From Vectrevirus T145P2, in the sequence record OZ035747.1: a DNA stretch of 45,051 nt; one strand, given 5' to 3'. The stretch's first letter is position 1, and the number at the start of each line of letters is the position of its first letter. A model generated the notes under the pieces. That model had not been told where the DNA came from, did not search any database, and saw only the letters and a program-made list of their open reading frames with translations. Of the stretch, positions 330-19,238 are shown piece by piece. The translations under genes and the position numbers were made by a program.

Positions 330-330
330 T

Positions 331-2659: not shown

Positions 2660-2680
2660 TTACTGGACACTATAGAAGGA
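2658..2680 (+). promoter_or_regulatory. phage RNAP promoter
   Basis: ATTACTGGACACTATAGAAGG immediately after terminase stop; followed by AT-rich leader with TAGGT repeats. Confidence 0.8.
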
Positions 2681-2819
2681 AAGCCCAGATAATAAGATAA
2701 ATAATAGGTAATATATAGGTTAACCTAGGTTATATAGGTATACCTTAGTATGGGTGTACTCCTGTACACCCTATTCCTTACTACCTTACTATATTTACAT
2801 AATAGGAGAGAGAGAGACA

Positions 2820-3098
2820 ATGGCTAATGATTATAGTAGTCAACCATTAACAGGTAAGTCTAAGCGAAAGCAGGTACAACCTGTAAGTGAAGCACTAATG
2901 CTTCCGGTACTCAAAAAAGAGGAAGTTAGTAAGAAAAGCAATGTTATTAATGATGCCACCAAATCAGGTAAACAGAAAGGGGCCATGGTGTGCCTTGAAG
3001 TGGAAGGTGGTGTATTGAAGATTGCTATCGCGGTTGATGGCAAAGAAGATTCAGAGTGGAAGTTAGTAACAGTGGAACCAGCTGTTAACCCAGTTTAA
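2820..3098 (+). CDS. hypothetical protein, paralog A of a tandem pair
   Basis: ATG 2820; 92 aa; shares SGKQKGAMV.LE...IA.A...W motif with next gene. Confidence 0.6.
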   Translation: MANDYSSQPLTGKSKRKQVQPVSEALMLPVLKKEEVSKKSNVINDATKSGKQKGAMVCLEVEGGVLKIAIAVDGKEDSEWKLVTVEPAVNPV

Positions 3099-3116
3099 GA
3101 TAAGGAGGAAGATTAC

Positions 3117-3410
3117 ATGGCTAAATATGGTACTACAGGTTCTGTTACTGGTCAGGCTTTTCGAGTAAAAGCAGTACAAACTATTGCAACGGCAATCCCG
3201 ATGCCTGTTGTTAAAGAAGCAGACCTTAAGAGTAAAGATCACCCTATCAACATCAAACATTTATCAGGTAAACAGAAAGGTGCAATGGTTGCTCTTGAGA
3301 AAAGTGACACAACCTTACATATTGCTGTTGCACGTGGTAGTGAACCAACAGACCCTTGGGATGTAACTGGCATGGAATCGCTCGCTGTCACTCCAGCAGG
3401 TGGAGAATAA
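3117..3410 (+). CDS. hypothetical protein, paralog B of a tandem pair
   Basis: AAGGAGG then ATG 3117; 97 aa; clear similarity to 2820..3098. Confidence 0.65.
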   Translation: MAKYGTTGSVTGQAFRVKAVQTIATAIPMPVVKEADLKSKDHPINIKHLSGKQKGAMVALEKSDTTLHIAVARGSEPTDPWDVTGMESLAVTPAGGE

Positions 3411-3754
3411 TGCTTAACAAATACTTCAAGCGCCGTGAGTTCGCTTGCCGTTGTGGGTGCGGTACATCCACTGTTGATGCTGAATTACTACAAGTAGTCA
3501 CAGATGTGCGTGAGCACTTTGGTTCTCCTGTAGTTATCACTTCTGGGCACCGCTGTGCTAAGCACAATGCTAATGTAGGAGGAGCTAAGAACTCCATGCA
3601 TCTTACTGGTAAGGCTGCTGACATTAAAGTTACTGGTATTGGGCCAATGGAGGTTCGTGCATACCTGTGCAATAAATACCCAGATAAATATGGTATTGGT
3701 GCTTATCCTACTTTCACTCATATTGATGTGAGGGATAATAAAGCACGATGGTAA
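3410..3754 (+). CDS. peptidase M15-family zinc peptidase, probable endolysin
   Basis: ATG 3410 overlapping previous stop; 114 aa; FACRCGCG, SGHRCAKHN, MHLTGKAADI and THID motifs characteristic of LAS/M15 peptidases. Confidence 0.78.
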   Translation: MLNKYFKRREFACRCGCGTSTVDAELLQVVTDVREHFGSPVVITSGHRCAKHNANVGGAKNSMHLTGKAADIKVTGIGPMEVRAYLCNKYPDKYGIGAYPTFTHIDVRDNKARW

Positions 3755-3879
3755 GATGCATTGAATGGTGTGAGCGCATGGTTGCTCAGGCTGCCGAGGA
3801 CGGCAACTATGATGACTGGAAGAACTACTCGGACTTGTTAGCTCAATGGAAAGGGAGATGTGATGAAAAAACTGTTTAA
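3748..3879 (+). CDS. small hypothetical ORF (43 aa)
   Basis: ATG 3748 overlapping endolysin 3-prime end; weak RBS; may be non-coding. Confidence 0.25.
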   Translation: MVRCIEWCERMVAQAAEDGNYDDWKNYSDLLAQWKGRCDEKTV

Positions 3880-4012
3880 GTCTAAGAAAGTGGTAGGTGC
3901 ACTAGTTGCACTGGTAATTGCCCTTGTTTCTGTAGGTCTTGGCGTAGACCTTGGTGAAGGTACGGAAGGTTCCGTCACTGACGTGGTATGCCAAGTAATC
4001 ACCTGTGAATAA
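3863..4012 (+). CDS. small membrane protein in lysis cassette (49 aa; holin/antiholin or spanin component)
   Basis: GGGAG then ATG 3863; MKKLFKSKK then 19-residue hydrophobic segment VVGALVALVIALVSVGLGV. Confidence 0.45.
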   Translation: MKKLFKSKKVVGALVALVIALVSVGLGVDLGEGTEGSVTDVVCQVITCE

Positions 4013-4089
4013 GGTGCTTGAGGTGGTGGCAGGTCTTATCGGCCTGCTGCTTGCCGCTAAGAAGAAGAAGGAAGACAAGGAGGCACAAA

Positions 4090-4299
4090 GTGAAGCGAAT
4101 CATGTTAGTGACAATCCTGCTGATTGGTTCGCTGATCACTTCCGGGTGTCAGCAGGCGTTACCAGAGAAAGCAATGGTGAAACCTCTGAGGCCGACGCTG
4201 ACGGAAGTTTACGAGGTAGACGATAAGGTCTGCTTTAGTAAGCCTGACGCTACAAAATTAGGTTTGTATATTCTTTCGCTAGAACGCGGATATAATTAA
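4090..4299 (+). CDS. outer-membrane lipoprotein, probable o-spanin (Rz1-like)
   Basis: AAGGAGG at 4077-4083 then GTG 4090 (alternative ATG 4102); MKRIMLVTILLIGSLITSGC lipoprotein signal with Cys; short Pro-containing mature part with second Cys. Confidence 0.55.
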   Translation: MKRIMLVTILLIGSLITSGCQQALPEKAMVKPLRPTLTEVYEVDDKVCFSKPDATKLGLYILSLERGYN

Positions 4300-4328
4300 T
4301 ACATAGCTTTATGTATCAGTGTCTTACG

Positions 4329-4351
4329 ATTTACTGGACACTATAGAAGAG
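4329..4351 (+). promoter_or_regulatory. phage RNAP promoter upstream of tailspike genes
   Basis: ATTTACTGGACACTATAGAAGAGG, exact consensus. Confidence 0.85.
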
Positions 4352-4430
4352 GTAAGATAGCGCCGTTCTTTTGAACGGCCTATTACTAGCCAATCTTCAT
4401 AGGGAGGGTTGGGAAGTAATAGGAGGTTTA

Positions 4431-5870
4431 ATGGCTAATATTACCAAACCTGTCACAACTGGTATTATACATGAAGGAAGGCTGCTATCAGATTATCTAA
4501 AACAAGCATGGGATAACACCTTACACGCTGATAACTACTTTGTTAGTGTTAAAGACTTTGGCGCTAAGGGTGATGGCTCTGCTGATGATACTGCTGCATT
4601 CAAAGCTGCACTTGCTTCTGGTAAGAATGTATATATCCCTGTAGGTATTTATATAATTAGTGAGACTTTGTATTTTAAGAATCAGGTTATAAAAGGGGGC
4701 GGAATAGCACCTATTCCGAGTCTTGGTACAATCCTTGCAATCTCACACAGTGAGCCTGCATTGAAATATGATGTAAGTGCAGGTTACTCTATGGGTGGTT
4801 ATTTAGGTGGGTTCTTCATAGATTATGGAGAGAACAAACCAGATAACTATGCAGGCAGAAAAGGCATAGATCTAGGTGATGCCGACCAACAAGCATGGCC
4901 TTCTCAATTTATCATTGAGAACATCATTGTCCGTGGTGCATACTTTGGTTTGCATGATGAAACAGGAGCATTCCAATACTCAATGCGCAATGTGGTTGCT
5001 ATCAATTGCTGGGAGGGGTTCCGTAAGTTCACTGGAACTACAGTCCTTATGGATACATGCTATGCGCTTAATTGCTATCAAGCATATAGACTGGCTAATG
5101 TTTATAATATGACAATGAATAACTGCGCCATGGATGGATGTAATGATATCCAAGGTTTACAGGCATTTGATATTACAAACTGCAAAGGTCTTGTGATAAA
5201 TGGCATGTATAGTGAGAATTGTGAGATCCATCATAGCGGTAATGCTTCTATATTTATTCATGGAGATTCTACAGTAACAATCAACGGTTATACCTTACAC
5301 TCGCATAATGTCGTTGTTGATCCAGCATCTGGAAGTGAAGAAGCATACTTTCTTAGAGCGCACGACAGCTCTAGGGTCAATGTAGATGGAATCTTCTTCG
5401 GTGAGAACCTTAAATCTACTAGTATCTTCACCTACCCAATTATGGCCTCTGGTGAGTCTAGAATTAAGCTAGGAACTACAGCACTTAAGGCATGGGTCGG
5501 TGCTAAGGGTGGTGCATCTATGGCTGCTGTTGAAGATAGTCTCATTGAATATGACAATACCGTATTTAACCCATCACTTACTGTAGGTTGGTGCAGTAAT
5601 AATGGTGTTGTAGCTAAAGGGACACTAGTTGTAAACACAACATTAGAACCTAATGCAGATTTAAATGCAGGAACTATACAATTAGTTGGTGACTATAAAC
5701 CAAATAAAGGTGATGTTCTTACATATGGTTCTACTTTCGATGTTCAATCATGTGCTATTATTCTGAAGCCACAAGGTGATAATAGTTGTAATGTTTACAT
5801 TAAAAACCTAAGTGCAGGTAGTAGTGTTACACTTAACGGAATATTGCACGTACAGGCAATTCGTAGGTAA
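4431..5870 (+). CDS. tailspike 1: beta-helix polysaccharide depolymerase/lyase-like protein (possibly K5-type lyase)
   Basis: AGGAGG then ATG 4431; 479 aa; KDFGAKGDGSADDTAAFKAALASGKNVYIP start of pectate-lyase-like beta-helix; repeated N-x-C turns; lacks T7 gp17-type N-terminal domain. Confidence 0.75.
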   Translation: MANITKPVTTGIIHEGRLLSDYLKQAWDNTLHADNYFVSVKDFGAKGDGSADDTAAFKAALASGKNVYIPVGIYIISETLYFKNQVIKGGGIAPIPSLGTILAISHSEPALKYDVSAGYSMGGYLGGFFIDYGENKPDNYAGRKGIDLGDADQQAWPSQFIIENIIVRGAYFGLHDETGAFQYSMRNVVAINCWEGFRKFTGTTVLMDTCYALNCYQAYRLANVYNMTMNNCAMDGCNDIQGLQAFDITNCKGLVINGMYSENCEIHHSGNASIFIHGDSTVTINGYTLHSHNVVVDPASGSEEAYFLRAHDSSRVNVDGIFFGENLKSTSIFTYPIMASGESRIKLGTTALKAWVGAKGGASMAAVEDSLIEYDNTVFNPSLTVGWCSNNGVVAKGTLVVNTTLEPNADLNAGTIQLVGDYKPNKGDVLTYGSTFDVQSCAIILKPQGDNSCNVYIKNLSAGSSVTLNGILHVQAIRR

Positions 5871-5875
5871 TCACA

Positions 5876-5899
5876 GGCAGTGCGTAAGCACTGCTTTTC
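5876..5899 (+). terminator. intrinsic terminator-like hairpin between the two tailspike genes
   Basis: GCAGTGC-GTAA-GCACTGC perfect 7-bp stem with tetraloop followed by TTTT. Confidence 0.6.
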
Positions 5900-5953
5900 G
5901 CGCAACTTTTCTTAAAGGTTATCATGATGGTAGCCTTTCAGAAAGGAGGTTAC

Positions 5954-8389
5954 ATGATTCAAAGACTAGGTTCTTCATTAGTTAAATTCAAGAGTAAAAT
6001 AGCAGGTGCAATCTGGCGTAACTTGGATGACAAGCTCACCGAGGTTGTATCGCTTAAAGATTTTGGAGCCAAAGGTGATGGTAAGACAAACGACCAAGAT
6101 GCAGTAAATGCAGCGATGGCTTCAGGTAAGAGAATTGACGGTGCTGGTGCTACTTACAAAGTATCATCTTTACCTGATATGGAGCGATTCTATAACACCC
6201 GCTTCGTATGGGAACGTTTAGCAGGTCAACCTCTTTACTATGTGAGTAAAGGTTTTATCAATGGTGAACTATATAAAATCACGGATAACCCTTATTACAA
6301 TGCTTGGCCTCAAGACAAAGCGTTTGTATATGAGAACGTGATATATGCACCTTACATGGGTAGTGACCGTCATGGTGTTAGTCGTCTGCATGTATCATGG
6401 GTTAAGTCTGGTGACGATGGTCAAACATGGTCTACTCCAGAGTGGTTAACTGATCTGCATCCAGATTACCCTACAGTGAACTATCATTGTATGAGCATGG
6501 GTGTATGTCGCAACCGTCTGTTTGCCATGATTGAAACACGTACTTTAGCCAATAACGCACTAACCAATTGTGCATTGTGGGATCGTCCTATGTCTCGTAG
6601 TCTGCACCTTACTGGTGGTATCACTAAGGCTGCAAATCAGCAATATGCAACAATACATGTACCAGATCACGGATTATTCGTGGGCGATTTTGTTAACTTC
6701 TCTAATTCTGCGGTAACAGGTGTATCAGGTGATATGACTGTTGCAACGGTAATAGATAAGGACAACTTCACGGTTCTTACACCTAACCAGCAGACTTCAG
6801 ATTTGAATAACGCTGGAAAGAGTTGGCACATGGGTACTTCTTTCCATAAGTCTCCATGGCGTAAGACAGATCTTGGTCTAATCCCTAGTGTCACAGAGGT
6901 GCATAGCTTTGCTACTATTGATAACAATGGCTTTGTTATGGGATATCATCAAGGTGATGTAGCTCCACGAGAAGTTGGTCTTTTCTACTTCCCTGATGCT
7001 TTCAATAGCCCATCTAATTATGTTCGTCGTCAGATACCATCTGAGTATGAACCAGATGCGTCAGAGCCATGCATCAAGTACTATGACGGTGTATTATACC
7101 TTATCACTCGTGGCACTCGTGGTGACAGACTTGGAAGCTCTTTGCATCGTAGTAGAGATATAGGTCAGACTTGGGAGTCACTGAGATTTCCACATAATGT
7201 TCATCATACTACCTTACCTTTTGCTAAAGTAGGAGATGACCTTATTATGTTTGGTTCAGAACGTGCAGAAAATGAATGGGAAGCAGGTGCACCAGATGAC
7301 CGTTACAGGGCATCTTATCCTCGTACCTTCTATGCACGATTGAATGTAAACAATTGGAATGCAGATGATATTGAATGGGTTAACATCACAGACCAAATCT
7401 ATCAAGGGGACATTGTGAACTCTAGTGTAGGTGTAGGTTCTGTTGTAGTTAAAGACAGCTACATTTACTATATCTTTGGTGGTGAAAATCATTTCAACCC
7501 AATGACTTATGGTGACAACAAAAATAAAGACCCATTTAAAGGTCATGGACACCCTACTGATATATACTGCTATAAGATGCAGATTGCAAATGACAATCGT
7601 GTATCTCGTAAGTTTACATATGGTGCAACTCCTGGTCAAGCTATACCTACTTTCATGGGTACTGATGGGGTACGAAATATCCCTGCACCTTTGTATTTCT
7701 CAGATAACATTGTTACAGAGGATACTAAAGTTGGACACTTAACAATTAAAGCAAGCACAAGTTCCAATATACGATCTGAAGCGCAGATGGAAGGTGAATA
7801 TGGCTTTATTGGCAAGTCTGTTCCAAAGGATAACCCAACTGGTCAACGTTTGATTATTTGTGGTGGAGAAGAGACTTCGTCCTCTTCAGGTGCACAGATA
7901 ACTTTGCACGGCTCTAATTCAAGTAATGCTAATCGTATCACTTATAACGGAAATGAGCACCTATTCCAAGGTGCACCAATCATGCCTGCTGTAGATAACC
8001 AGTTTGCTGCTGGTGGGCCTAGTAACCGATTCACTACCATCTACCTAGGTAGTGACCCTGTTACAACTTCAGATGCTGAACACAAGTACGGCATCTCTAG
8101 TATTAATACCAAGGTGTTAAAGGCTTGGGGTAGAGTTGGTTTTAAACAGTATGGTTTGAATAGTGAAGCAGAGAGGAATCTTGATAGCATACACTTCGGT
8201 GTCTTGGCTCAGGATATTGTAGCTGCTTTTGAAGCTGAAGGATTGGATGCCATTAAGTATGGAATTGTGTCCTTCGAAGAAGGTAGGTACGGTGTGAGAT
8301 ATAGTGAAGTTCTAATCCTAGAGGCTGCCTACACTCGCCATCGTCTTGATAAATTAGAGGAGATGTACGCCGCTAATAAAATCAGTTAA
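5954..8389 (+). CDS. tailspike 2: endo-N-acetylneuraminidase (endosialidase) with C-terminal intramolecular chaperone domain
   Basis: AAAGGAGG then ATG 5954; 811 aa; C-terminal SDAEHKYGISS...LDSIHFGVLAQD region resembles the self-cleaving chaperone domain of K1-phage endosialidases (from memory). Confidence 0.85.
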   Translation: MIQRLGSSLVKFKSKIAGAIWRNLDDKLTEVVSLKDFGAKGDGKTNDQDAVNAAMASGKRIDGAGATYKVSSLPDMERFYNTRFVWERLAGQPLYYVSKGFINGELYKITDNPYYNAWPQDKAFVYENVIYAPYMGSDRHGVSRLHVSWVKSGDDGQTWSTPEWLTDLHPDYPTVNYHCMSMGVCRNRLFAMIETRTLANNALTNCALWDRPMSRSLHLTGGITKAANQQYATIHVPDHGLFVGDFVNFSNSAVTGVSGDMTVATVIDKDNFTVLTPNQQTSDLNNAGKSWHMGTSFHKSPWRKTDLGLIPSVTEVHSFATIDNNGFVMGYHQGDVAPREVGLFYFPDAFNSPSNYVRRQIPSEYEPDASEPCIKYYDGVLYLITRGTRGDRLGSSLHRSRDIGQTWESLRFPHNVHHTTLPFAKVGDDLIMFGSERAENEWEAGAPDDRYRASYPRTFYARLNVNNWNADDIEWVNITDQIYQGDIVNSSVGVGSVVVKDSYIYYIFGGENHFNPMTYGDNKNKDPFKGHGHPTDIYCYKMQIANDNRVSRKFTYGATPGQAIPTFMGTDGVRNIPAPLYFSDNIVTEDTKVGHLTIKASTSSNIRSEAQMEGEYGFIGKSVPKDNPTGQRLIICGGEETSSSSGAQITLHGSNSSNANRITYNGNEHLFQGAPIMPAVDNQFAAGGPSNRFTTIYLGSDPVTTSDAEHKYGISSINTKVLKAWGRVGFKQYGLNSEAERNLDSIHFGVLAQDIVAAFEAEGLDAIKYGIVSFEEGRYGVRYSEVLILEAAYTRHRLDKLEEMYAANKIS

Positions 8390-8589
8390 GCAAGCTGCTG
8401 TACGCCAGAACGCAGAAGAACTTATTCAATCAGGACGTGACCCTAAGCAGGCATACGCCATTGCCAAGGATGTACAACGTCGTGCCTTGAAGAAATCTTC
8501 TGCATCTTCTGCTTAAGCAGGTTAATATCTTAGTGTACACAAGGGCAGACCTAGGTTTGCTCTTAGTGCCATCAAAGGAGGGTGTAGGT

Positions 8590-8697
8590 ATGTTATCTTT
8601 GTTGTGTATACTCAGTGATGTCCTAGGTCGTAAGAGGTACATTCTTAGTGAAGACCAAATAAGGGACGAGAAGATACGGAGGTCGCTCACAAAGTAA
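8590..8697 (+). CDS. small hypothetical ORF (35 aa) at the extreme right end of the gene map
   Basis: GGAGG then ATG 8590 with 8-nt spacing; basic peptide; no homolog recognised. Confidence 0.3.
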   Translation: MLSLLCILSDVLGRKRYILSEDQIRDEKIRRSLTK

Positions 8698-9055
8698 CCA
8701 AAGTCAAAATTTTGATATAGGCGTGTGTGAGGTGTCTCGCCCTCGCCCTCGCCGGATTTCCCCCATATGGGGCCGCGCTGCGGTTGGCTTGGGAGTTGGG
8801 CTGGGCTGGTCCGTCTTCGACGGGTGGCCTAGGGCTTGCCGAGGTCTGCTCTTAGTGGCTGCACAAGGAGAACGCCTAGGAAGCGCTAGGGCACGCCTTA
8901 GTATTGGACAAGGTGATTGCCTTAGTGCAACCGCTTAGGGCTTACACAGGCCGTTTTAGGGCCATTCATGAGCGTTTGACAGGGTGGGCGTGGGTGGGCT
9001 ATCTGTTCGTTTCGCTCCACTACGTTACGCTACACTCACCGCGCTTGTGTATCCT

Positions 9056-9064
9056 TGGTATAAT
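9056..9064 (+). promoter_or_regulatory. candidate host sigma70 extended -10 element
   Basis: TGGTATAAT (TGnTATAAT) in the non-coding terminal region. Confidence 0.35.
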
Positions 9065-9406
9065 CCTGATGGATGGCTTAGGTTAGACTTAGTGGGCTAC
9101 CTTAGTTAAAGCCTTAGTGCTTAGCTTAGTATCAACTTAGTAGTGTACCTTAGTAAGTCTTAGTGTCTTCTCTTAGTGATTGCATAGCTAAAGCTATAAG
9201 ATGCAATTAGGTCGCGGTCGGTAGACCGCTAATAAGAAGTAATAGTAATAAGATGCAGTAGGAGGAACACCAGAAACCTAGCCAACCTAGTCTATCCTAG
9301 CTCTGTATCTATTGCTTTCCTTAGTCTCACATGTTAGACAACCTAGGTTTATCTTAGTAGTTGTGACATGTATCACATAAATAATCTATCTTAGTGCGAT
9401 TTAGTG

Positions 9407-9435
9407 TTGACATAGGCAGTTAACAGGTATACATT
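9407..9435 (+). promoter_or_regulatory. candidate host sigma70 early promoter
   Basis: TTGACA - 17 nt - TACATT. Confidence 0.55.
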
Positions 9436-9658
9436 AGCAATCAGTCGGGAGCGACATTAAACACTCAGGGTGAATGATAGAGAGCGTCCTTAACTATCCG
9501 GCCTAGCTACTGAAGCCGTTAAACAATGTTAGATAGTGGAAGATGGCGCAAGCATAACCTACCACGATAAACCAAGGTTAGCGCAATGCTCTTTAACAAT
9601 TTGCTTAGTGTAACCTGTGTATGCCGTGGTTAATTACTTATTGAATGAGGGATTAACT

Positions 9659-9775
9659 ATGAATTACGAAGAAATGTATGAAGTCTATTTCGACTCATTA
9701 GATGAAGGAGAAGAAGCATTAACCTTCGCTGAGTTTATGGAGGCTTTATGGAGTTTCTATCATGACTCTAAATAA
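9659..9775 (+). CDS. small acidic early protein (38 aa)
   Basis: ATG 9659; first ORF after the host promoter; not in ORF track (<60 aa). Confidence 0.4.
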   Translation: MNYEEMYEVYFDSLDEGEEALTFAEFMEALWSFYHDSK

Positions 9776-9938
9776 CCGTGAACTATCCGTCCTCTTCACT
9801 CTGTTATGCTACATGATTCGTAACAACGAATTACTTACAGATGACGAGTTGGCACTATATCACCGCTTTCTTAACGAAGGTTGGACAGATACAGTTAACC
9901 ATAAACGTGACTTGATGAAGGAGTTAGGCAATGTATAA
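9762..9938 (+). CDS. small early protein (58 aa)
   Basis: ATG 9762; overlaps neighbours by a few nt as is common in T7-like early regions. Confidence 0.4.
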   Translation: MTLNNRELSVLFTLLCYMIRNNELLTDDELALYHRFLNEGWTDTVNHKRDLMKELGNV

Positions 9939-10140
9939 GCATGAGATTTACACGGCTTGCAATAAATCGGCTAAGGTTATCATTGAGATGTACAAGGCAG
10001 AATGTCAGGCGTACAACCTCAATGATGGTACCGAGATGTTTTATCTTCAGTTTGAAAGCAAGTTATCTCACAAACGAGTGATTAGCAGTCTTAATCAACA
10101 CTCTTTAGATTGGGAAGAAGTGAACAGCAATAAACTTTAA
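9931..10140 (+). CDS. early hypothetical protein (69 aa)
   Basis: ORF track; ATG 9931. Confidence 0.55.
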   Translation: MYKHEIYTACNKSAKVIIEMYKAECQAYNLNDGTEMFYLQFESKLSHKRVISSLNQHSLDWEEVNSNKL

Positions 10141-10148
10141 ATTAACTA

Positions 10149-10177
10149 TTGACAACCACGGCATACAAGGTTACATT
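10149..10177 (+). promoter_or_regulatory. candidate host sigma70 early promoter, twin of 9407
   Basis: TTGACA - 17 nt - TACATT, identical hexamers and AGGT before the -10 as at 9407. Confidence 0.55.
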
Positions 10178-10424
10178 AAGCATCAAGACGGCGACGTCTT
10201 TAAAAATCACGCTCTTTAACAATAGAGATTAGGCCGGGAGTATCGGTGTGAGGGATAAGGAGGCTTTCCCACAATTAAACTGGTGGCAAAAGGATTGCCC
10301 AGCTTTATAGCCCAGTTATGGATAGCAATAGCGTAAGGATGGCAGCACACCCGCGAGTCTAATCTCTAGCTCTTTAACAATCTGGCTAGTGCCTTGGTAG
10401 GCTAACTACTTACTAAGGTGAACT

Positions 10425-10637
10425 ATGAACTACTGCGACATCGCTCACGAATTACGCATGGAACGTGAGAAACAAGAAAGGCGGATTATCAAGAAGATGG
10501 CTGTACTGCTTGCACACTATAAGGCAGACAAACAGCCAACACATGATGAGTTCGTTGACTTCTGTAACATGTATCTTAATGTGAGTAAGGCCACTGGTTA
10601 CAGATGGCTTAAAGCACTGAATGATGGAGAATTGTAG
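10425..10637 (+). CDS. early hypothetical protein (70 aa), possible small DNA-binding protein
   Basis: AAGGTGAACT then ATG; C-terminal SKATGYRWLKAL resembles a helix-turn-helix. Confidence 0.55.
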   Translation: MNYCDIAHELRMEREKQERRIIKKMAVLLAHYKADKQPTHDEFVDFCNMYLNVSKATGYRWLKALNDGEL

Positions 10638-10736
10638 TAATAAGCCAGCTTAATAGCTGGCCTATCAAGGCACTAACCTAGCTCTTTAACAATCTGGTTT
10701 GTGTCTTGATAGGCTTACTAACAAAGGTGAACTATC

Positions 10737-10901
10737 ATGACTAACGCACAACGTAAACGCTATGATGCATTGCAAGAGAAACTTGCTGTTGCTTATGCCG
10801 CTTGGCAAGCTAACACAGACAAGAGCAAACACGATAAACTTTATAGTAAAGTGGTTGCAATTAATGCTAAAATAGATAAACTTGTGAATAGTATCTTATA
10901 A
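10737..10901 (+). CDS. small early protein (54 aa), predicted helical
   Basis: ATG 10737 after AAAGGTGA; followed by hairpin 10909-10924. Confidence 0.45.
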   Translation: MTNAQRKRYDALQEKLAVAYAAWQANTDKSKHDKLYSKVVAINAKIDKLVNSIL

Positions 10902-11050
10902 GATAGTTGCTGGCACTAGCCAGCCTATCAAGGCACAAGCCACGCTCTTTAACAATATGGGTAGTCGCTTCTTAGTCTGGATAGGTTAAACCTAGGGTAT
11001 TCTTTTGAGTGCCCTATAATGTAAACTAACTAACTAATGAGGATTAAATC

Positions 11051-11380
11051 ATGGAACGCAACGCTAACGCTTACTACAACCTTCTGGCTGCAACTGTTGA
11101 AGCATTCAACGAGCGCATCAAGTACGATGAGATTCGTGAAGATGATGATTACTCTGATGCACTGCATGAGGTTGTAGATAGCATGGTGCCAGTTTATTAC
11201 AGCGAAATCTTTACTGTGATGGCTGCTGATGGCATTGATGTTGATTTTGAAGATGCTGGTTTGATTCCTGATACGAAGGATGTAACCAAGATTCTACAAG
11301 CTCGCATCTATGAAGCTCTTTATAATGATGTACCAAATGACAGCGATGTAGTTTGGTATGAAGGCGAAGAAGAGGAATAA
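11051..11380 (+). CDS. ocr: Ocr-like DNA-mimic anti-restriction protein (T7 gp0.3 homolog)
   Basis: 109 aa, very acidic; VPVYYSEIFTVMAADGIDVDFEDAGLIPDTKDVTKILQARIYEAL closely parallels the T7 Ocr core as I recall it. Confidence 0.88.
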   Translation: MERNANAYYNLLAATVEAFNERIKYDEIREDDDYSDALHEVVDSMVPVYYSEIFTVMAADGIDVDFEDAGLIPDTKDVTKILQARIYEALYNDVPNDSDVVWYEGEEEE

Positions 11381-11384
11381 TAAG

Positions 11385-11498
11385 ATGGAAAGGCAATATA
11401 ACTTCATATTTTCAGACGGTGTAACCCTGAAATGTTCCTTACGATTTGCGCAGATTCGTGAGGAAGTGCTAGGTACTACATACAAACTATTTAGCTGA
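11385..11498 (+). CDS. small early protein (37 aa)
   Basis: GAGGA then ATG 11385. Confidence 0.35.
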   Translation: MERQYNFIFSDGVTLKCSLRFAQIREEVLGTTYKLFS

Positions 11499-11512
11499 CA
11501 CTATAAGAGAAG
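11489..11512 (+). promoter_or_regulatory. variant phage RNAP promoter-like site
   Basis: ATTTAGCTGACACTATAAGAGAAG; SP6-like upstream half, altered initiation region. Confidence 0.4.
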
Positions 11513-11574
11513 GCTTAACAAGGCGTTGCTACGGTAGCGCCTGATTAAACTTTCACTTACTAGAGGTTAAGATT

Positions 11575-11700
11575 ATGAAACTATCGCCATCCGCTAAAGG
11601 CCTCATTGCAGAACTTAAAGATTCTTTGAGGAATCCAATCATTTGGGCACTTATCTACATACCTTATGGTATCTACCTATTTCACCTCATCACTGAGTAA
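11575..11700 (+). CDS. small hydrophobic early protein (41 aa)
   Basis: AGAGG then ATG 11575; IIWALIYIPYGIYLFHLI hydrophobic segment. Confidence 0.4.
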   Translation: MKLSPSAKGLIAELKDSLRNPIIWALIYIPYGIYLFHLITE

Positions 11701-11763
11701 CTAGCCTATAGCCTACCTGAGTGGGCTATGTGATACTTACTTACACTATATAAGGTGATTACT

Positions 11764-12648
11764 ATGACTACTGAAAACGTCCTCCTGTCTGTTCGTGAAG
11801 CTGCAACCGCTGAAATCAAGCAGCACTTAGACAATATCGGCACTTCTTACATCAAAGTTGGCGCTTGTCTGAATGAATTACGCGGTGATTTCGAAGGTCA
11901 AAAAGACTTTTTAGCTTATGTAGAATCAGAGTTCGGCATCAAGAAGGCACAATGTTACAAGCTGATGAGTGTAGCCCGTGTCTTTGAAGGAGATGATCGC
12001 TTTAAAGGCGTGGCGATGCGTGTAATGCTGGCGCTTGTTCCTTTCGCTGATGAAAATATAATCATGGAGAAGGCCGCAGAACTCGCCGCAGCTGGCAAGC
12101 TGGACACTAATGCCGTAAACGCCCTGATTGAACCTAAGAAAGAGATAAAGACTGAAACGGTACAATCTAAGGCTGAGGCGGTAAAACCGCAGGAGAACGC
12201 TACTGAGGCCGCAGAATCACAGGAAATGCAAGCGCCGCAGGTAGTGCCACCAGCGAGCGAGCAGGAGGCCGACGAATCAGCACCATGGGAAGAGGAAAGC
12301 AAGCCGGAAGCGCCAAAGGCAGCGCCGCTGGATAACACGGCTAATACAGAAAACGCCGCTATGGCTAGCCTCTTAGCACAAATTAAGGCACTGACTGAGC
12401 AATTACAGGCAGCTAATGACCGCATCGCCTCCTTAAGTAGCGCACGCGAAAGCAAGAAGGCAGCCGCACCTATGCTGCCGCAATTCAAATCTTCCTGCTT
12501 CTATGCTCGCTTAGGTTTAAGCGCTGAGGAGGCAATGAAGAAAACAGCAGTTAACAAGGCACGCCGCGAACTGGTTAAGCTAGGCTACGGTGAAGGCCAT
12601 GAAGCATGGCCCTTAATCTCTGAGGCAGTAGAAGAGTTGACTAAGTAA
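11764..12648 (+). CDS. early protein with DUF3102-like N-terminal domain, acidic Ala/Pro-rich linker and small C-terminal domain
   Basis: TAAGG then ATG 11764; 294 aa; LRGDFEGQKDFLAYVESEFGIKKAQCYKLM motif; low-complexity EAAESQEMQAPQ linker. Confidence 0.7.
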   Translation: MTTENVLLSVREAATAEIKQHLDNIGTSYIKVGACLNELRGDFEGQKDFLAYVESEFGIKKAQCYKLMSVARVFEGDDRFKGVAMRVMLALVPFADENIIMEKAAELAAAGKLDTNAVNALIEPKKEIKTETVQSKAEAVKPQENATEAAESQEMQAPQVVPPASEQEADESAPWEEESKPEAPKAAPLDNTANTENAAMASLLAQIKALTEQLQAANDRIASLSSARESKKAAAPMLPQFKSSCFYARLGLSAEEAMKKTAVNKARRELVKLGYGEGHEAWPLISEAVEELTK

Positions 12649-12711
12649 CCTTATCGGTGGCATCTTCTTAGGTGTCACCTATTAAGGTTTCTTTCACTAG
12701 GAGTAAACAAG

Positions 12712-15339
12712 ATGCAAGACCTACACGCTATTCAACTTCAACTTGAAGAAGAAATGTTTAACGGCGGTATCCGTCGCTTTGAAGCTGACCAACAACGCCA
12801 GATTGCATCCGGTAATGAATCAGACACGGCATGGAATCGACGCTTATTGTCCGAACTAATCGCACCTATGGCGGAAGGTATTCAGGCTTACAAGGAAGAA
12901 TACGAAGGCAAGAGAGGTCGTGCACCCCGTGCATTAGCTTTCATTAACTGCGTAGGAAACGAAGTGGCAGCATATATCACCATGAAAATCGTTATGGATA
13001 TGCTGAATACAGACGTTACCTTACAAGCTATCGCTATGAATGTAGCAGACCGCATCGAGGACCAAGTACGTTTTAGCAAGCTGGAAGGTCACGCAGCTAA
13101 GTATTTTGAGAAAGTGAAGAAGTCGCTTAAGGCTAGCAAGACTAAATCTTATCGTCATGCGCACAACGTAGCGGTAGTAGCTGAGAAATCTGTTGCTGAC
13201 CGTGACGCGGATTTCTCCCGTTGGGAGGCATGGCCTAAAGACACCTTGCTGCAAATCGGTATGACCTTGCTCGAAATATTGGAGAATAGTGTATTCTTCA
13301 ATGGTCAACCTGTCTTCCTTCGTACCTTGCGCACTAACGGCGGAAAGCATGGTGTTTACTATTTACAGACCAGTGAACATGTTGGCGAGTGGATAACTGC
13401 ATTTAAGGAACATGTAGCTCAGCTCAGCCCTGCCTATGCACCTTGCGTTATACCTCCCCGCCCTTGGGTATCACCTTTTAACGGTGGGTTTCATACTGAG
13501 AAAGTAGCAAGCCGTATTCGTCTGGTAAAAGGCAATCGTGAGCACGTCCGCAAGCTGACCAAAAAGCAAATGCCAGCCGTTTATAAGGCTGTTAACGCTT
13601 TGCAGGCAACTAAGTGGCAGGTTAATAAAGAGGTTTTACAGGTTGTGGAGGACGTTATACGTCTAGACCTCGGCTATGGTGTGCCTTCCTTTAAACCACT
13701 CATCGACCGTGAGAACAAGCCAGCTAATCCAGTGCCGTTAGAGTTCCAGCACCTGCGAGGCCGTGAACTTAAAGAGATGCTAACGCCGGAACAATGGCAA
13801 GCCTTCATCAACTGGAAAGGCGAATGTACCAAGCTGTATACCGCTGAAACTAAGCGCGGCAGCAAATCGGCGGCGACCGTCCGCATGGTTGGGCAGGCAC
13901 GTAAATACAGCCAGTTTGACGCCATCTACTTCGTGTATGCACTGGACAGCCGCAGCCGCGTCTACGCGCAATCTAGCACGCTCTCTCCGCAATCAAACGA
14001 CTTAGGCAAGGCATTGCTCCGTTTTACCGAAGGGCAGCGCCTCGATAGCGCTGAGGCGCTTAAATGGTTTTTGGTGAACGGGGCTAATAACTGGGGTTGG
14101 GATAAGAAGACTTTTGACGTGCGCACCGCTAACGTGCTGGATAGTGAATTTCAAGACATGTGCCGCGACATTGCAGCGGATCCGCTTACCTTCACTCAAT
14201 GGGTGAATGCCGACTCCCCTTACGGCTTCCTTGCTTGGTGCTTTGAATATGCGCGTTATCTGGATGCACTGGATGAAGGCACGCAAGACCAATTCATGAC
14301 GCACCTCCCCGTCCATCAAGATGGTAGTTGTTCTGGTATCCAGCACTACAGTGCTATGCTACGCGATGCAGTAGGTGCGAAAGCAGTAAACCTTAAGCCC
14401 TCTGATTCTCCTCAAGATATTTATGGTGCCGTTGCGCAGGTAGTAATTCAGAAGAATTATGCATACATGAATGCAGAGGATGCGGAAACCTTCACTTCTG
14501 GCAGCGTGACTTTAACAGGTGCGGAACTGCGTAGCATGGCTAGTGCGTGGGATATGATAGGAATCACTCGCGGCCTGACCAAAAAGCCCGTAATGACACT
14601 ACCTTACGGCAGCACACGTCTAACCTGCCGTGAGTCAGTGATTGATTATATCGTTGATTTGGAAGAAAAAGAGGCCCAACGGGCTATTGCGGAAGGGCGT
14701 ACCGCCAATCCTGTACATCCTTTTGATAATGACCGCAAAGACAGCCTGACACCTAGCGCAGCTTATAACTATATGACAGCTTTAATCTGGCCTTCTATTT
14801 CGGAAGTGGTTAAAGCTCCTATAGTGGCAATGAAAATGATTCGTCAGCTTGCACGTTTCGCAGCTAAAAGAAACGAAGGCTTAGAATATCCCTTACCAAC
14901 TGGCTTCATCTTGCAACAAAAGATAATGGCTACCGATATGCTCCGCGTATCCACTTGCTTGATGGGTGAAATCAAGATGAGTCTCCAGATTGAAACAGAT
15001 GTAGTTGATGAAACGGCAATGATGGGTGCGGCTGCTCCTAACTTCGTCCATGGTCACGATGCTAGCCACCTGATTCTGACTGTATGTGACCTAGTGGATA
15101 AAGGTATTACATCCATTGCAGTCATCCATGATTCTTTCGGTACTCATGCAGGACGTACCGCAGACCTGCGGGATAGCTTAAGGGAAGAAATGGTTAAGAT
15201 GTATCAAAACCATAATGCCCTGCAAAACCTGCTAGATGTGCACGAAGAGCGTTGGTTAGTAGACACCGGAATCCAAGTACCAGAGCAAGGAGAGTTTGAC
15301 CTTAACGAAATCTTAGTTTCAGACTATTGTTTCGCATAA
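12712..15339 (+). CDS. single-subunit DNA-directed RNA polymerase (T7 gp1-like)
   Basis: 875 aa; collinear with T7 RNAP including PFCFLAFCFEY-like [27 protein letters not shown] and IHDSFGTHA motifs. Confidence 0.97.
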
Positions 15340-15347
15340 TATTAATA

Positions 15348-15378
15348 GGCCATTCCTTAGGGAGTGGCCTTTTTCTTT
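15348..15378 (+). terminator. intrinsic terminator after the RNAP gene (candidate early terminator)
   Basis: GGCCATTCC-TTAG-GGAGTGGCC 9-bp stem followed by TTTTTCTTT. Confidence 0.65.
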
Positions 15379-15413
15379 ACCTACTACCTGTAACATTTCA
15401 TTAACATAAAAGT

Positions 15414-15429
15414 GTCTCACATGTGAGAC
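15414..15429. repeat. 16-bp palindrome GTCTCACATGTGAGAC, copy 1
   Basis: Perfect palindrome 3 nt upstream of promoter 15432. Confidence 0.8.
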
Positions 15430-15431
15430 TT

Positions 15432-15454
15432 ATTTACCGGACACTATAGGATAG
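15432..15454 (+). promoter_or_regulatory. phage RNAP promoter (CCGG subclass)
   Basis: ATTTACCGGACACTATAGGATAG. Confidence 0.7.
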
Positions 15455-15605
15455 CCGTCGGAGACGGGAAAGAAAGGGAAGATAAAGGATATAAAGGAAG
15501 TAATAGGTATTAAAGGTTATATAGGTTATCTAGGAATACCTAGGAATACCTATTACCTTCTGCCCTTCCTCTTATTACCACTTAGAGGAAAGGCAGACCT
15601 AGGTT

Positions 15606-15621
15606 GTCTCACATGTGAGAC
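15606..15621. repeat. 16-bp palindrome GTCTCACATGTGAGAC, copy 2
   Basis: Perfect palindrome, preceded by GGCAGACCTAGGTT also found at 8545. Confidence 0.8.
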
Positions 15622-15626
15622 TTCGT

Positions 15627-15649
15627 ATTTACCGGACAGTATAGATAAG
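15627..15649 (+). promoter_or_regulatory. phage RNAP promoter, variant core
   Basis: ATTTACCGGACAGTATAGATAAG. Confidence 0.55.
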
Positions 15650-15675
15650 ACTAACTCACTTTGGAGATTTTAACC

Positions 15676-15804
15676 ATGCGTAACTTTGAGAAGATGACCC
15701 GTAAAGCTAACCGTTTTGACATGGAAGAAGGGCAGACGAAAGGCAAGAAGCTGAATAAACCTGTCCGTGACCGTGCATCTAAACGCGCTGCGTGGGAGTT
15801 CTAA
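15676..15804 (+). CDS. small basic protein, T7 gp1.1-like (42 aa)
   Basis: GGAGA then ATG 15676; MRNFEKMTRKANR...KLNKPVRDRASKR matches my recollection of T7 gp1.1. Confidence 0.65.
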   Translation: MRNFEKMTRKANRFDMEEGQTKGKKLNKPVRDRASKRAAWEF

Positions 15805-15807
15805 GTT

Positions 15808-17796
15808 ATGGCTATTATTCAGAATGTACCGTGTCCCGCCTGTCAAAAGAATGGACATGATATTACTGGCAACCATCTTATGATATTTGAGGATGGCGCT
15901 GGTTACTGTAACCGTGGTCACTTCCATGATAACGGCAAGCCTTATTACCATAAGCCAGAGGGTGGCATCGAGATAACCGAATTACCTATTACTGGCAATA
16001 TCAAATATACACCTTCTCAGTTTAAAGAGATGGAGAAGGAAGGGAAGATTAGCGACCCTAAGCTACGCGCCATCGCACTTGGTGGTATGCGTATGAAAGA
16101 CCGTTGGGAGGTTATGAATGAGCAAGAAAGGGCAGACCAAGAAGCAGAGTGGAAACTTGATGTTGAATGGTTCCTCACGCTTAAGCGTAAGAATCTTGTT
16201 TCCCGACACATTCGCGGCGACATTTGCGCATTGTATGATGTACGTGTCGGACACGATGAAGATGGTAGAGTCTCACGGCATTACTATCCACGCTTCGAGA
16301 AAGGTGAGCTAGTAGGCGCCAAGTGTCGCACATTACCTAAAGACTTTAAGTTTGGTCATTTAGGTAAACTCTTTGGTATGCAAGATCTTTTCGGTATGAA
16401 TACTTTGTCTCACGTGTTAGACAAGGGAAGACGAAAGGATTGCTTGCTTATTGTGGGCGGCGAACTGGATGCACTAGCAGCACAGCAGATGCTCCTTGAT
16501 TCTGCCAAGGGTACTAAGTGGGAAGGCCAGCCTTACCATGTATGGTCTGTCAATAAAGGTGAGTCTTGCCTTGAAGAGATAGTGCAGAACCGTGAGCATA
16601 TCGCCCAATTCAAGAAGATTATATGGGGTTTTGATGGAGATGAGGTGGGGCAGAAGCAGAATCAGCAAGCGGCTCGCCTGTTTCCTGGCAAATCCTATAT
16701 CCTTGAATACCCTTCTGGTTGCAAAGATGCTAACAAGGCATTGATGGCTGGCAAGGCTAAAGAGTTTGTTGATGCTTGGTTTAATGCCAAGTCATCTGAT
16801 GAAGTCTTTGGTAGCCAGATTAAATCTATCGCATCTCAAAGGGATAAGCTCAAGGCTGCACGTCCAGAGCAAGGGTTATCATGGCCTTGGCCTAAGCTGA
16901 ACAAGGTAACGCTAGGTATTCGTAAGAACCAGCTTATCATTGTAGGTGCAGGCTCTGGTGTAGGTAAGACTGAGTTCCTCCGCGAAGTGGTTAAACATCT
17001 TATTGAAGAACACGGTGAATCTGTAGGCATCATTTCTACAGAAGACCCGATGGTCAAGGTGTCCCGTGCTTTTATCGGCAAGTGGATTGATAAGCGTATT
17101 GAGTTACCGCCAACCAACGACCCGAAAGAAGACGGATACCGTGAGGTGTTCGACTACACCGAGGAAGAAGCTAACGCTGCCATTGATTATGTGGCTGATA
17201 CAGGAAAGCTATTTGTGGCTGACCTAGAAGGCGACTATTCTATGGAGAAGGTAGAGCAAACTTGCCTAGAGTTTGAGGCTATGGGCATTTCTAATATCAT
17301 CATTGATAACTTAACGGGGATTAAATTAGATGAGCGTGCTTTTGGTGGGAAGGTTGGTGCACTTGATGAATGCGTCAAACGAATTGGTACTATCAAAGAC
17401 CGACATGCGGTTACGATTTTCCTTGTCTCTCACCTTACACGTCCTCCGGCAAACCGTACCCAACACGAAGAAGGTGGCGAAGTTATCCTTTCTGACTTCC
17501 GAGGCTCAGGCGCTATCGGATTCTGGGCATCTTACGCCTTGGGGATTGAGCGTAATACAAGAGCTGAAACGCTTGATGAAAGGACTACCACGTACATCTC
17601 TTGTGTCAAAGACCGCGACCAAGGTATCTACACAGGAACCAAAGTCATGCTCAAGGGTGACATTCAGACCGGGCGTTTGAGAGAACCACAAGCTAGAACA
17701 AGGTCGTTTGATACAGGCGAAGCAAGGCAACAAGAAGTACCGGATTTACCGGACACTATAGAAGAGACAACCTTTGACGATGAACAGGAGTTTTAA
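15808..17796 (+). CDS. DNA primase/helicase (T7 gp4-like)
   Basis: 662 aa; N-terminal Cys4 zinc motif CPACQKNGHD...YCNRGH; Walker A GAGSGVGKTEF; acidic C-terminus ending DDEQEF. Confidence 0.95.
   Translation: MAIIQNVPCPACQKNGHDITGNHLMIFEDGAGYCNRGHFHDNGKPYYHKPEGGIEITELPITGNIKYTPSQFKEMEKEGKISDPKLRAIALGGMRMKDRWEVMNEQERADQEAEWKLDVEWFLTLKRKNLVSRHIRGDICALYDVRVGHDEDGRVSRHYYPRFEKGELVGAKCRTLPKDFKFGHLGKLFGMQDLFGMNTLSHVLDKGRRKDCLLIVGGELDALAAQQMLLDSAKGTKWEGQPYHVWSVNKGESCLEEIVQNREHIAQFKKIIWGFDGDEVGQKQNQQAARLFPGKSYILEYPSGCKDANKALMAGKAKEFVDAWFNAKSSDEVFGSQIKSIASQRDKLKAARPEQGLSWPWPKLNKVTLGIRKNQLIIVGAGSGVGKTEFLREVVKHLIEEHGESVGIISTEDPMVKVSRAFIGKWIDKRIELPPTNDPKEDGYREVFDYTEEEANAAIDYVADTGKLFVADLEGDYSMEKVEQTCLEFEAMGISNIIIDNLTGIKLDERAFGGKVGALDECVKRIGTIKDRHAVTIFLVSHLTRPPANRTQHEEGGEVILSDFRGSGAIGFWASYALGIERNTRAETLDERTTTYISCVKDRDQGIYTGTKVMLKGDIQTGRLREPQARTRSFDTGEARQQEVPDLPDTIEETTFDDEQEF
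17744..17766 (+). promoter_or_regulatory. phage RNAP promoter inside 3-prime end of the primase-helicase gene
   Basis: ATTTACCGGACACTATAGAAGAG. Confidence 0.7.
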
Positions 17797-17957
17797 TGGA
17801 AATTATTAAACCAGTATTGAATATCGGTATTGAGATCCTATTCATGCTTGTGATCGCAGATTATGCTGCACGATATGGATTCAAGAAAGCTGTGAAACTT
17901 ATCGTTGCATCTGGTTTTATTATGTCAATGTTCTTTATTGTAACACGCCTTATCTAG
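17796..17957 (+). CDS. small membrane protein (53 aa, two hydrophobic segments)
   Basis: AGGAG then ATG 17796 overlapping helicase stop (TAATG). Confidence 0.5.
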   Translation: MEIIKPVLNIGIEILFMLVIADYAARYGFKKAVKLIVASGFIMSMFFIVTRLI

Positions 17958-17974
17958 TGTATTTATCAGGGCTT

Positions 17975-17990
17975 GTCTCACATGTGAGAC
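17975..17990. repeat. 16-bp palindrome GTCTCACATGTGAGAC, copy 3
   Basis: Embedded in GCTTGTCTCACATGTGAGACAGGC, which can form a ~12-bp stem. Confidence 0.8.
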
Positions 17991-18029
17991 AGGCTCTTAT
18001 TAAGTACATTAAATAACTGGAGGTTGATT

Positions 18030-18752: not shown

Positions 18753-18762
18753 GGAGTCAATC

Positions 18763-18981
18763 ATGACTAAGGTATTAATTTATATGCGTGGACCTCATAA
18801 ATGCTATGCAGTTGTAGCACCAGATGGTGTTAAGCCCTATGGTACTTCAAAAGGATTGGCATTAATAGGTGCTAGTCGTAGTGCAAGTTTCCAAATGGAA
18901 CTTTCTGGTCATTGGACTGAATGGCAATTCCGTGAGGATTTTAAAGTCATTGGCAGCTTCATGGTGAAATATGCAGAATAA
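18763..18981 (+). CDS. hypothetical protein (72 aa)
   Basis: ORF track; GGAG upstream. Confidence 0.55.
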   Translation: MTKVLIYMRGPHKCYAVVAPDGVKPYGTSKGLALIGASRSASFQMELSGHWTEWQFREDFKVIGSFMVKYAE

Positions 18982-19180: not shown

Positions 19181-19238
19181 GTCAAGGGTTGTCCAACGTG
19201 TTGGACAGCCTTTCATCATATTGATTGGGAGGTATTAA

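Follow-up and report, generated by a model that had tools for sequence, protein, structure and literature searches.

Which sites near the left end of the Vectrevirus T145P2 genome could the host RNA polymerase (RNAP) use to transcribe the early genes, and what would keep that enzyme moving as far as the gene for the phage's own RNAP? We addressed this question in sequence record OZ035747.1, a stretch of 45,051 nucleotides (hereafter the window), starting from two sites, P1 and P2, at which a sequence-only reading had seen one and the same pair of -35 and -10 hexamers. In our assessment both are very probably host sigma-70 promoters, and downstream of each stands a 12-mer, GCTCTTTAACAA, identical to the boxA of Escherichia coli ribosomal RNA (rrn) operons. 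From the sequence we infer that P1 and P2 are used in vivo, where their transcripts start, and that these early transcripts would be protected by boxA-nucleated antitermination of the rrn type. The sites, and the genome end from which their distances are counted, lie as follows.

Positions 9407-9435, + strand: P1, sigma-70-type promoter (TTGACA 9407-9412, 17-bp spacer TAGGCAGTTAACAGGTA, TACATT 9430-9435).
Positions about 9440-9443, + strand: predicted start of P1, ~708 bp from the left end.
Positions 10149-10177, + strand: P2, sigma-70-type promoter (TTGACA 10149-10154, 17-bp spacer ACCACGGCATACAAGGT, TACATT 10172-10177).
Positions about 10182-10185, + strand: predicted start of P2.
Positions 8735-8737, + strand: approximate physical left end (in alignments, position 1 of K1E and ACG-C91 falls at 8735, and position 1 of K1-5 at 8737).

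Both hexamer pairs were found exactly where they had been reported. The exact arrangement TTGACA-N17-TACATT occurs twice in the 45 kb when both strands are counted, against 0.01 ± 0.10 in 100 dinucleotide-preserving shuffles. At each site the -35 matches the consensus at all six positions, the 17-bp spacer has the optimal value in the 16-18 range, and nowhere else in the window does a perfect TTGACA stand 17 bp from a -10 scoring at least 4/6. Both sites point rightward in non-coding DNA, 672 and 1414 bp from the left end, and P2 occupies a gap directly after a stop codon, with an A/T-rich segment upstream. Promoter scans of the window yielded no better candidate between the left end and the first promoter of the phage polymerase. 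TTGACA itself is scarce in the window as a whole (18 copies against 29.7 ± 5.7 expected, with at least 18 in all 100 shuffles), a deficit consistent with selection against stray -35 elements of the host type beyond the early region. The two sites had also been said to share AGGT immediately before the -10; this is so at P2, whereas at P1 the AGGT (9425-9428) is followed by an A before TACATT. Because the motif is one base off at P1 and differs in relatives (in K1E, AGAT at the first site and AGGC at the second), we regard it as coincidental and have dropped it.

The relatives needed to judge these sites are plentiful. Megablast of 8900-11500 matched 107 phage records, the best of them K1-capsule-specific coliphages of the genus Vectrevirus (ULINTec4, T145P2, vB_EcoP_C/D/R, K1E and K1-5) and the weaker ones Salmonella phage SP6, Klebsiella and Citrobacter phages and other relatives; by sequence, the phage of the window belongs to the SP6 group and resembles K1E and K1-5. 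Conservation was assessed in 25 related loci: K1E, K1-5, SP6, 16 IMG/VR contigs, two Klebsiella phages, UAB_Phi78, SE29, Proteus PM 93 and one Edwardsiella phage. The early region of nearly all of these carries two to three rightward TTGACA-N17 modules ending in TACATT, TACTAT or CATAAT, with an exact boxA 45-280 nt later and with every module upstream of the first phage promoter. The -10 of P2 is invariant in 19 distinct homologues. Their spacers are 92.5% identical, against a mean pairwise identity of 72% for the 45 bp upstream, 49% for the leader and 51% for the sequence beyond boxA. The -10 of P1 is invariant in 6 distinct homologues (mean pairwise identity 76% in the spacer and 54% downstream), and since it is unchanged while the spacer is only 76% identical, the P1 hexamers stand out as conserved islands. 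This invariance spans phages of Escherichia, Salmonella, Klebsiella and Citrobacter, with Proteus relatives also sampled, while the flanks diverge. Homologues were picked by a pattern that contained TTGACA, and the -10 lay outside that pattern.

The left-end regions of K1E, K1-5 and SP6 (Vectrevirus and Zindervirus, Molineuxvirinae) are orthologous to that of the window. At the same relative positions as in the window, K1E has P1 at 715, boxA at 894, P2 at 1601 and boxA at 1663 and 1975; K1-5 has P1 at 609, boxA at 710, P2 at 1193 and boxA at 1255 and 1467; and SP6 has P1 at 576 and boxA at 656 and 926. The GenBank records of these three phages annotate only coding genes in the region, neither promoters nor boxA. 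P1 of the window is of the K1E type and not of the K1-5 type (TTGACA-N17-TACTAT). Some relatives, K1-5 among them, have this different version of P1 together with a different leader, whose hairpin shows compensatory changes in 5 of its 18 predicted pairs (GGUGC/GCACC, AGCAC/GUGCU, GGAAG/CUUCC), so that the alternative leader is under selection at the RNA level.

The element that the sequence-only reading had missed is the boxA 12-mer after each promoter. The window holds five exact copies of GCTCTTTAACAA, all on the + strand, where 0.36 would be expected even at up to one mismatch. The functional boxA consensus of gamma-proteobacteria, GYTCTTTAANA (PMC5725501), likewise gives five matches against 0.32 expected, all on the + strand and confined to 9588-10955. 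The copies are the following.

Positions 9587-9599, + strand: boxA copy 1 (TGCTCTTTAACAA; the 12-mer begins at 9588), ~145 nt from the start of the P1 transcript, with the first early gene (ATG 9659) following after 60 nt.
Positions 10211-10222, + strand: boxA copy 2, ~26 nt into the P2 transcript.
Positions 10369-10380, + strand: boxA copy 3, 45 nt before the gene at 10425.
Positions 10681-10692, + strand: boxA copy 4, in the 17-nt loop of an intergenic stem-loop.
Positions 10944-10955, + strand: boxA copy 5, in the 149-nt gap before ocr.

The 12-mer is identical to the boxA that precedes 16S by 143 nt in the rrnH leader of E. coli K-12, and copy 1 with the TTT that follows it makes up 16 consecutive bases, TGCTCTTTAACAATTT, common to that leader. 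Each of the four untranslated gaps of at least 99 nt between P1 and 11489 (the 216-nt leader of P1, then 284, 99 and 149 nt) has at least one copy, and all copies lie between P1 or P2 on one side and the first phage promoter on the other, on the strand and in the interval where transcription by host RNAP would be expected. A scan of the window found none downstream of that promoter at 11489, and no later gap carries one. In most of the relatives sampled a boxA lies 21-34 nt after P2. No other non-coding piece of the region is as widely conserved as that from copy 1 to the first early ATG, 60 nt further on (9584-9662), with 82-97% identity in Escherichia, Salmonella, Klebsiella, Raoultella and Proteus phages and at least 91% outside Klebsiella and Proteus; around the ribosome binding site it may contain a structure for translation control. 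Behind copy 1, a boxC-like CUGUGU was considered and set aside: relatives read CUAUGU, and no boxC is claimed.

Further afield, three IMG/VR contigs of 52-54 kb carry TTGACA-N17-TACATT followed 20-35 nt later by CGCTCTTTAACAAT (L041:2601-2663, L042:3460-3530 and L043:5710-5780). One of the three, L042, shows a distant relationship to phages of Vibrio anguillarum, for example VaK and Her. The pairing of host-type promoter and rrn-type boxA therefore reaches beyond the T7 supergroup.

What follows P1 and P2 is laid out as an early unit, with these parts.

Positions 9659-9775, 9762-9938 and 9931-10140, + strand: three small early genes (PHROG families with no assigned function).
Positions 10425-10637 and 10737-10901: small genes after P2, the first after boxA copy 3 and the second after copy 4.
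Positions 11051-11380, + strand: ocr-like anti-restriction gene (Pfam PF08684, E = 2e-31; PHROG 2568).
Positions 11489-11510, + strand: first phage-RNAP promoter after the left end (ATTTAGCTGACACTATAAGAGA, with motif match TTTAGCTGACACTATA at 11490 and a predicted start at 11506).
Positions 12712-15339, + strand: gene for the phage single-subunit RNAP, 875 aa (Pfam RNA_pol and RPOL_N), last gene of the putative host-transcribed unit.
Positions 15347-15376, + strand: strong intrinsic terminator (10-bp stem with 6 G-C pairs, then TTTTTCTTT), 8 nt past the stop codon of the RNAP gene.

Two further genes lie between the phage promoter at 11489 and the RNAP gene. The gene order, from small early genes to ocr to the single-subunit RNAP gene, is that of K1E, K1-5 and SP6, and the terminator is a candidate early terminator for host RNAP. 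As an early gene, ocr must be expressed immediately. The whole layout, with inward host-type promoters near the leading end, ocr and the RNAP gene, and an intrinsic terminator, fits class I of the T7 supergroup.

SP6-type promoters of the form TTTA[CG]NNGACACTATA were found at 2659, 4330, 11490, 15433, 15628, 17745, 18632, 22208, 22976, 24122, 27308 and 32390. The statement that no phage-type promoter precedes 11489 is thus right in genome order and wrong in window coordinates, where those at 2659 and 4330 come earlier. Because position 1 of K1E, ACG-C91 and K1-5 aligns at about 8735, we take the window to be a circularly permuted whole genome with its left end there; the DNA before that point is the right, late genome end, and the promoters at 2659 and 4330 belong to it. 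One phage promoter was considered around P1 itself, where ATTTAGTGTTGACATAGG resembles ATTTAGCTGACACTATAAG, and was rejected on its wrong spacing and on the lack of any match even at three mismatches. The first phage promoter is accompanied by a long near-perfect hairpin at 11498-11568, which begins ~8 nt before the predicted start at 11506; it would form the 5' end of the first phage-RNAP transcript and is probably an RNase III site or a 5' stabiliser. An Rfam scan of 8600-12000 at E <= 1 returned only a spurious hit to a microRNA family, on this hairpin.

Could P1 and P2 nevertheless be functionless chance matches to the sigma-70 consensus, with early transcription starting elsewhere? Several points weigh against their being promoters, and the first of them speak for chance. 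The -10 TACATT matches the consensus at only four of six positions (T1, A2 and T6 are kept); the resulting total of 10/12 is equalled by nine further sites in the window; and promoter-like sites in 1-20000 number 33 against 39.6 in shuffles, which is no excess. Because nine sites tie and the site total does not exceed that of the shuffles, the consensus score alone proves nothing. Other points bear on the comparative evidence: the invariance of the -35 arises partly by construction, as TTGACA was in the selection pattern, and the SP6 homologue of P2, found by alignment, reads TTGACT-N18-TACATT. The P2 spacer (10155-10171, 92.5%) and the 70 bp upstream of P1 (9337-9406, 94%) are more conserved than neighbouring coding sequence; they exceed what a plain sigma-70 promoter needs, and some other selection may act there. 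The predicted folds of the P1 and P2 leaders are not better than those of shuffles (z = -1.5 and -1.3), so no global leader structure is claimed, and boxA copy 1 is partly base-paired in the non-significant P1-leader fold (z = -1.5). Finally, a search of the accessible literature found no experimental 5' ends, in vitro transcription or Nus-binding data for SP6-group phages, nor any open-access description of host promoters or boxA in them; the original genome papers, which lay outside the reach of our search, are likely to note at least the promoters already.

Against chance stand the finding of the exact pair twice where 0.01 was expected, the -10 that stays invariant across phages of four host genera while its flanks diverge, the consistent position, orientation and downstream boxA in nearly all relatives, and the lack of a better candidate between the left end and the first phage promoter. 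What distinguishes P1 and P2 is the perfect -35 with its 17-bp spacer, together with their position, conservation and downstream elements. A chance origin of the two sites is excluded for practical purposes, and early transcription from other starts, with P1 and P2 idle, is scarcely credible. The reading of both as host promoters is supported by their non-coding setting, inward direction, invariant -10 and downstream boxA, by the later position of the first phage promoter and by the terminator. The suggestion that host RNAP would transcribe the early genes as it does from T7 A1-A3 agrees, at the level of sequence, with every comparative and contextual test that we ran. The earlier wording that the two sites drive the early region is too strong if read as demonstrated; they would probably do so.

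The extended -10 proposed at 9056 fared less well. The motif, TGGTATAAT, is indeed present at 9056-9064 on the + strand, whereas its significance falls away with the lack of conservation: TGnTATAAT was found at the homologous position in none of 12 aligned relatives, K1E, K1-5 and SP6 included, most of which have CCTTAGGT-TATTCC at that point, the opening unit of an array of CCTTAG repeats. It also has no usable -35, and is probably fortuitous or lineage-specific. A perfect TATAAT at 11015-11020 was rejected as a promoter for want of both a -35 and a TG.

Whether P2 works alongside P1 is a separate matter. P1 alone might function early, with the 29 bp of P2 kept mainly as a protein-binding site, for instance of a phage or host regulator whose site overlaps or mimics a promoter, or as an RNA element in read-through from P1. 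The P2 spacer is more conserved (92.5% identical in the 19 distinct relatives) than that of P1 (76%), as such a second role would lead one to expect. In T7 the first few hundred bp of the genome enter the cell first and transcription helps to pull in the rest, as the work of Molineux and colleagues is reported to show; if entry were T7-like here, P2, ~1.4 kb from the left end, would become available only after transcription from P1. P2 nevertheless equals P1 in its perfect -35, its 17-bp spacing and its -10, and it is non-coding, follows a stop codon and has A/T-rich DNA upstream. In most relatives sampled a boxA comes 21-34 nt further on, and a promoter with a boxA behind it is also what T7 A3 presents. 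A boxA after a site that does not initiate would be harder to explain, though copies 4 and 5 show that it is possible. We consider it quite improbable that P1 acts alone, and retain two working promoters.

Among the closest known systems is the early unit of T7, with promoters A1-A3, a boxA downstream and the early terminator TE. T7 A1-A3 are strong sigma-70 promoters with perfect or near-perfect -35 and imperfect -10 hexamers, A3 reading TTGACA-N17-TACGAT beside the TTGACA-N17-TACATT of the window; they start rightward transcripts 498, 626 and 750 from the left end, compared with ~708 for P1. The boxA 12-mer occurs identically in T7, once in the first 3.4 kb, at 813 and 63 nt after the A3 start, and an intrinsic terminator likewise closes the T7 early unit, which has ocr and the gene for the phage RNAP within it. 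The T7 boxA is functional in that, as PMC3709561 relates in citing Savalia 2010, mutations in boxA or down-mutations in A3 make the host-RNAP inhibitor Gp2 dispensable, which is evidence that host transcription in T7 is antiterminated through boxA. The two phages differ in several respects. T7 has a cluster of three promoters, whereas the two of the window are dispersed, ~740 bp from each other and separated by three genes. The window has five copies of boxA (at least one per untranslated gap) where T7 has one, a terminator directly after the RNAP gene, and no phage promoter upstream of P1, where T7 has phiOL at 405.

Another known system is the E. coli rrn operon, with its boxB-boxA-boxC arrangement, to which the boxA 12-mer is identical and with which copy 1 shares its 16 consecutive bases. 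In rrn operons boxA is repeated in the leader and in the 16S-23S spacer of one transcription unit, and in the window too it recurs along a single unit. Both systems have boxA in untranslated RNA downstream of strong sigma-70 promoters, and in the window a hairpin lies a few nucleotides upstream of several copies, as is often so in the gaps of the early unit. The unit of the window differs from rrn in being protein-coding and in having no boxC claimed for it, and Nus binding to it is putative.

Beyond the leaders, the gaps contain more RNA structure and a variable insert, with these features.

Positions 9444-9455, + strand: small hairpin (GUCG-GGAG-CGAC) with which the P1 transcript is predicted to begin at its 5' end.
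Positions 10185-10200, + strand: hairpin (AAGACG-GCGA-CGUCUU) predicted for the 5' end of P2 transcripts, with 10 nt between it and boxA copy 2; present in only part of the relatives.
Positions 10224-10368, + strand: 145-bp non-coding insert between boxA copies 2 and 3, with terminal inverted repeat TAGAGATTAGGCC...GAGTCTAATCTCTA.
Positions 10644-10661, + strand: separate hairpin before the following stem-loop.
Positions 10662-10712, + strand: intergenic stem-loop of 12 + 4 predicted bp with boxA copy 4 in its loop, identical in K1E.

The sequence at 9444-9455 differs in relatives that have other versions of the leader; by our own reading those, too, can form a hairpin. The stem-loop region of copy 4 has a predicted energy of -36.9 kcal/mol (z = -4.6; none of 200 shuffles as stable), and copy 5 lies between hairpins (z = -4.1).

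Of about 110 related phage records only 8 contain the 145-bp insert, with identities of at least 98.6%, and it is absent from the K1E type record, in comparison with which it is the extra segment of the window. A host origin was rejected, as no match was found in 5,426 E. coli genomes, and Rfam gave no match to it. It is a variable accessory segment, perhaps a small element that is mobile or arose by recombination, or else a structured RNA. The junctions of indels relative to K1E (10223/10369) fall exactly on boxA copies, and so do those relative to K1-5, LL11 and ACG-C91 (10224 or 10208/10681); the breakpoints in alignments to the four phages lie at 10108-10224, 10369, 10681 and 10909 of the window. 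This suggests that early gene cassettes may be exchanged by recombination between identical boxA repeats of 12-17 nt.

These structures and junctions raise the possibility that, with the promoters real, the GCTCTTTAACAA repeats are mainly parts for RNA processing of the RNase III type, known from T7 early mRNA, or for translation control, or else recombination joints. Copy 4 in the loop of a very stable stem and copy 5 between hairpins agree with the former, and the coincidence of every indel junction with a boxA copy, as well as the two copies flanking the accessory insert, with the latter. There is also a precedent in E. coli suhB, where a boxA close to the start codon represses expression and does not promote it (PMC5725501). 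Neither joints nor RNase III sites, however, would need a 12-mer identical to the boxA of host rrn operons and of T7, nor would they explain why copies occur on the sense strand only and only where transcription by host RNAP is expected. In all four folds boxA is predicted to be single-stranded, as binding by NusB/E requires, except in the non-significant fold of the P1 leader. A main function in processing, translation control or recombination is therefore unlikely. Recombination at boxA has real support as an additional property, though it would more plausibly follow from the identity of the repeats than be what they are there for, and the roles are compatible.

If P1 and P2 are host promoters and the repeats are antitermination sites, the following course of events can be proposed. 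Host RNAP would use both promoters immediately after infection. P1 would be among the first DNA to enter the cell, because it lies ~700 bp from the leading end, in the zone of T7 A1-A3; transcription from it would run rightward through the three small genes and, by analogy with T7, may help to pull in the rest of the genome, P2 becoming available only afterwards. P2 would add transcripts from ~1.45 kb on, which take in two small genes, then ocr, and then what follows as far as the gene for the phage RNAP. Long untranslated stretches would normally invite Rho-dependent termination. NusB/NusE would bind each boxA RNA, GCUCUUUAACAA, as it emerges and, together with NusA, NusG and SuhB, would convert host RNAP into a fast, Rho-resistant elongation complex of the rrn type, with successive copies of boxA reloading the Nus complex after each gap or processing cut, as the boxA of the rrn leader and spacer do. 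A boxA in each gap would be the design expected to keep host RNAP going through the phage polymerase gene. Host transcription would end at the intrinsic terminator at 15347-15376, which can still end the unit because antitermination of the rrn type is directed mainly at Rho, not at intrinsic terminators that are strong. That no boxA follows 11489 fits the view that RNAP of the T7 type has no interaction with Nus factors (PMC5725501).

As a more tentative extension, the early operon of the SP6 group might be a chain of rrn-leader mimics that reload the Nus complex, with boxA doubling as a recombination joint through which early gene cassettes and non-coding inserts come and go. This would explain both the indel junctions on boxA and the number of copies, since the window has five, the most of all, whereas K1E, K1-5, SP6 and the other relatives sampled have two to three. 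We regard it as possible and less likely than not.

Some further elements of the region deserve mention. A 16-bp palindrome, GTCTCACATGTGAGAC, occurs in seven copies at up to two mismatches (0.17 expected), most of them intergenic, at 9324, 15414, 15606, 16407, 17975, 24090 and 40576. One copy, conserved in relatives, stands 67 bp upstream of P1 (83 bp from start to start), and three others lie 3-16 nt upstream of the phage promoters at 15433, 15628 and 24122; the palindrome could form an RNA hairpin or be the binding site of a dimeric protein. A second, imperfect palindrome, GTGACATGTATCAC, is found at 9363-9376, inside the conserved block upstream of P1. Nearer the left end, GTGGGCTATCTGTTCGTTTCGCT at 8994-9016 is conserved and marks the inner boundary of the direct terminal repeat in relatives: the repeat of UAB_Phi78 is annotated as 1-180 and the match begins at 183, with matches at 167 in SP6 and 227 in K1-5. 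It is a candidate signal for concatemer processing or packaging, and downstream of it, at 9070-9400, runs the array of CCTTAG(T) repeats.

The arrangement described here is ordinary for the SP6 group, a T7-style early unit in which the copies of boxA are unusually many, and the accepted picture of T7-like development is unchanged. Annotation stands to gain two promoters, five boxA sites and an early terminator, in a pattern that carries over to all of the subfamily. Phages specific for the K1 capsule find use in therapy and engineering, and in them the early promoters and boxA would decide how fast ocr and the phage polymerase are produced and how far this depends on host Nus factors and Rho; the same elements would mark safe insertion points for foreign genes, with the boxA repeats apparently serving as junctions of cassettes by nature. 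An operon that codes for proteins and has boxA repeated along it also offers a simple system in which to ask whether antitermination complexes of the rrn type need reloading.

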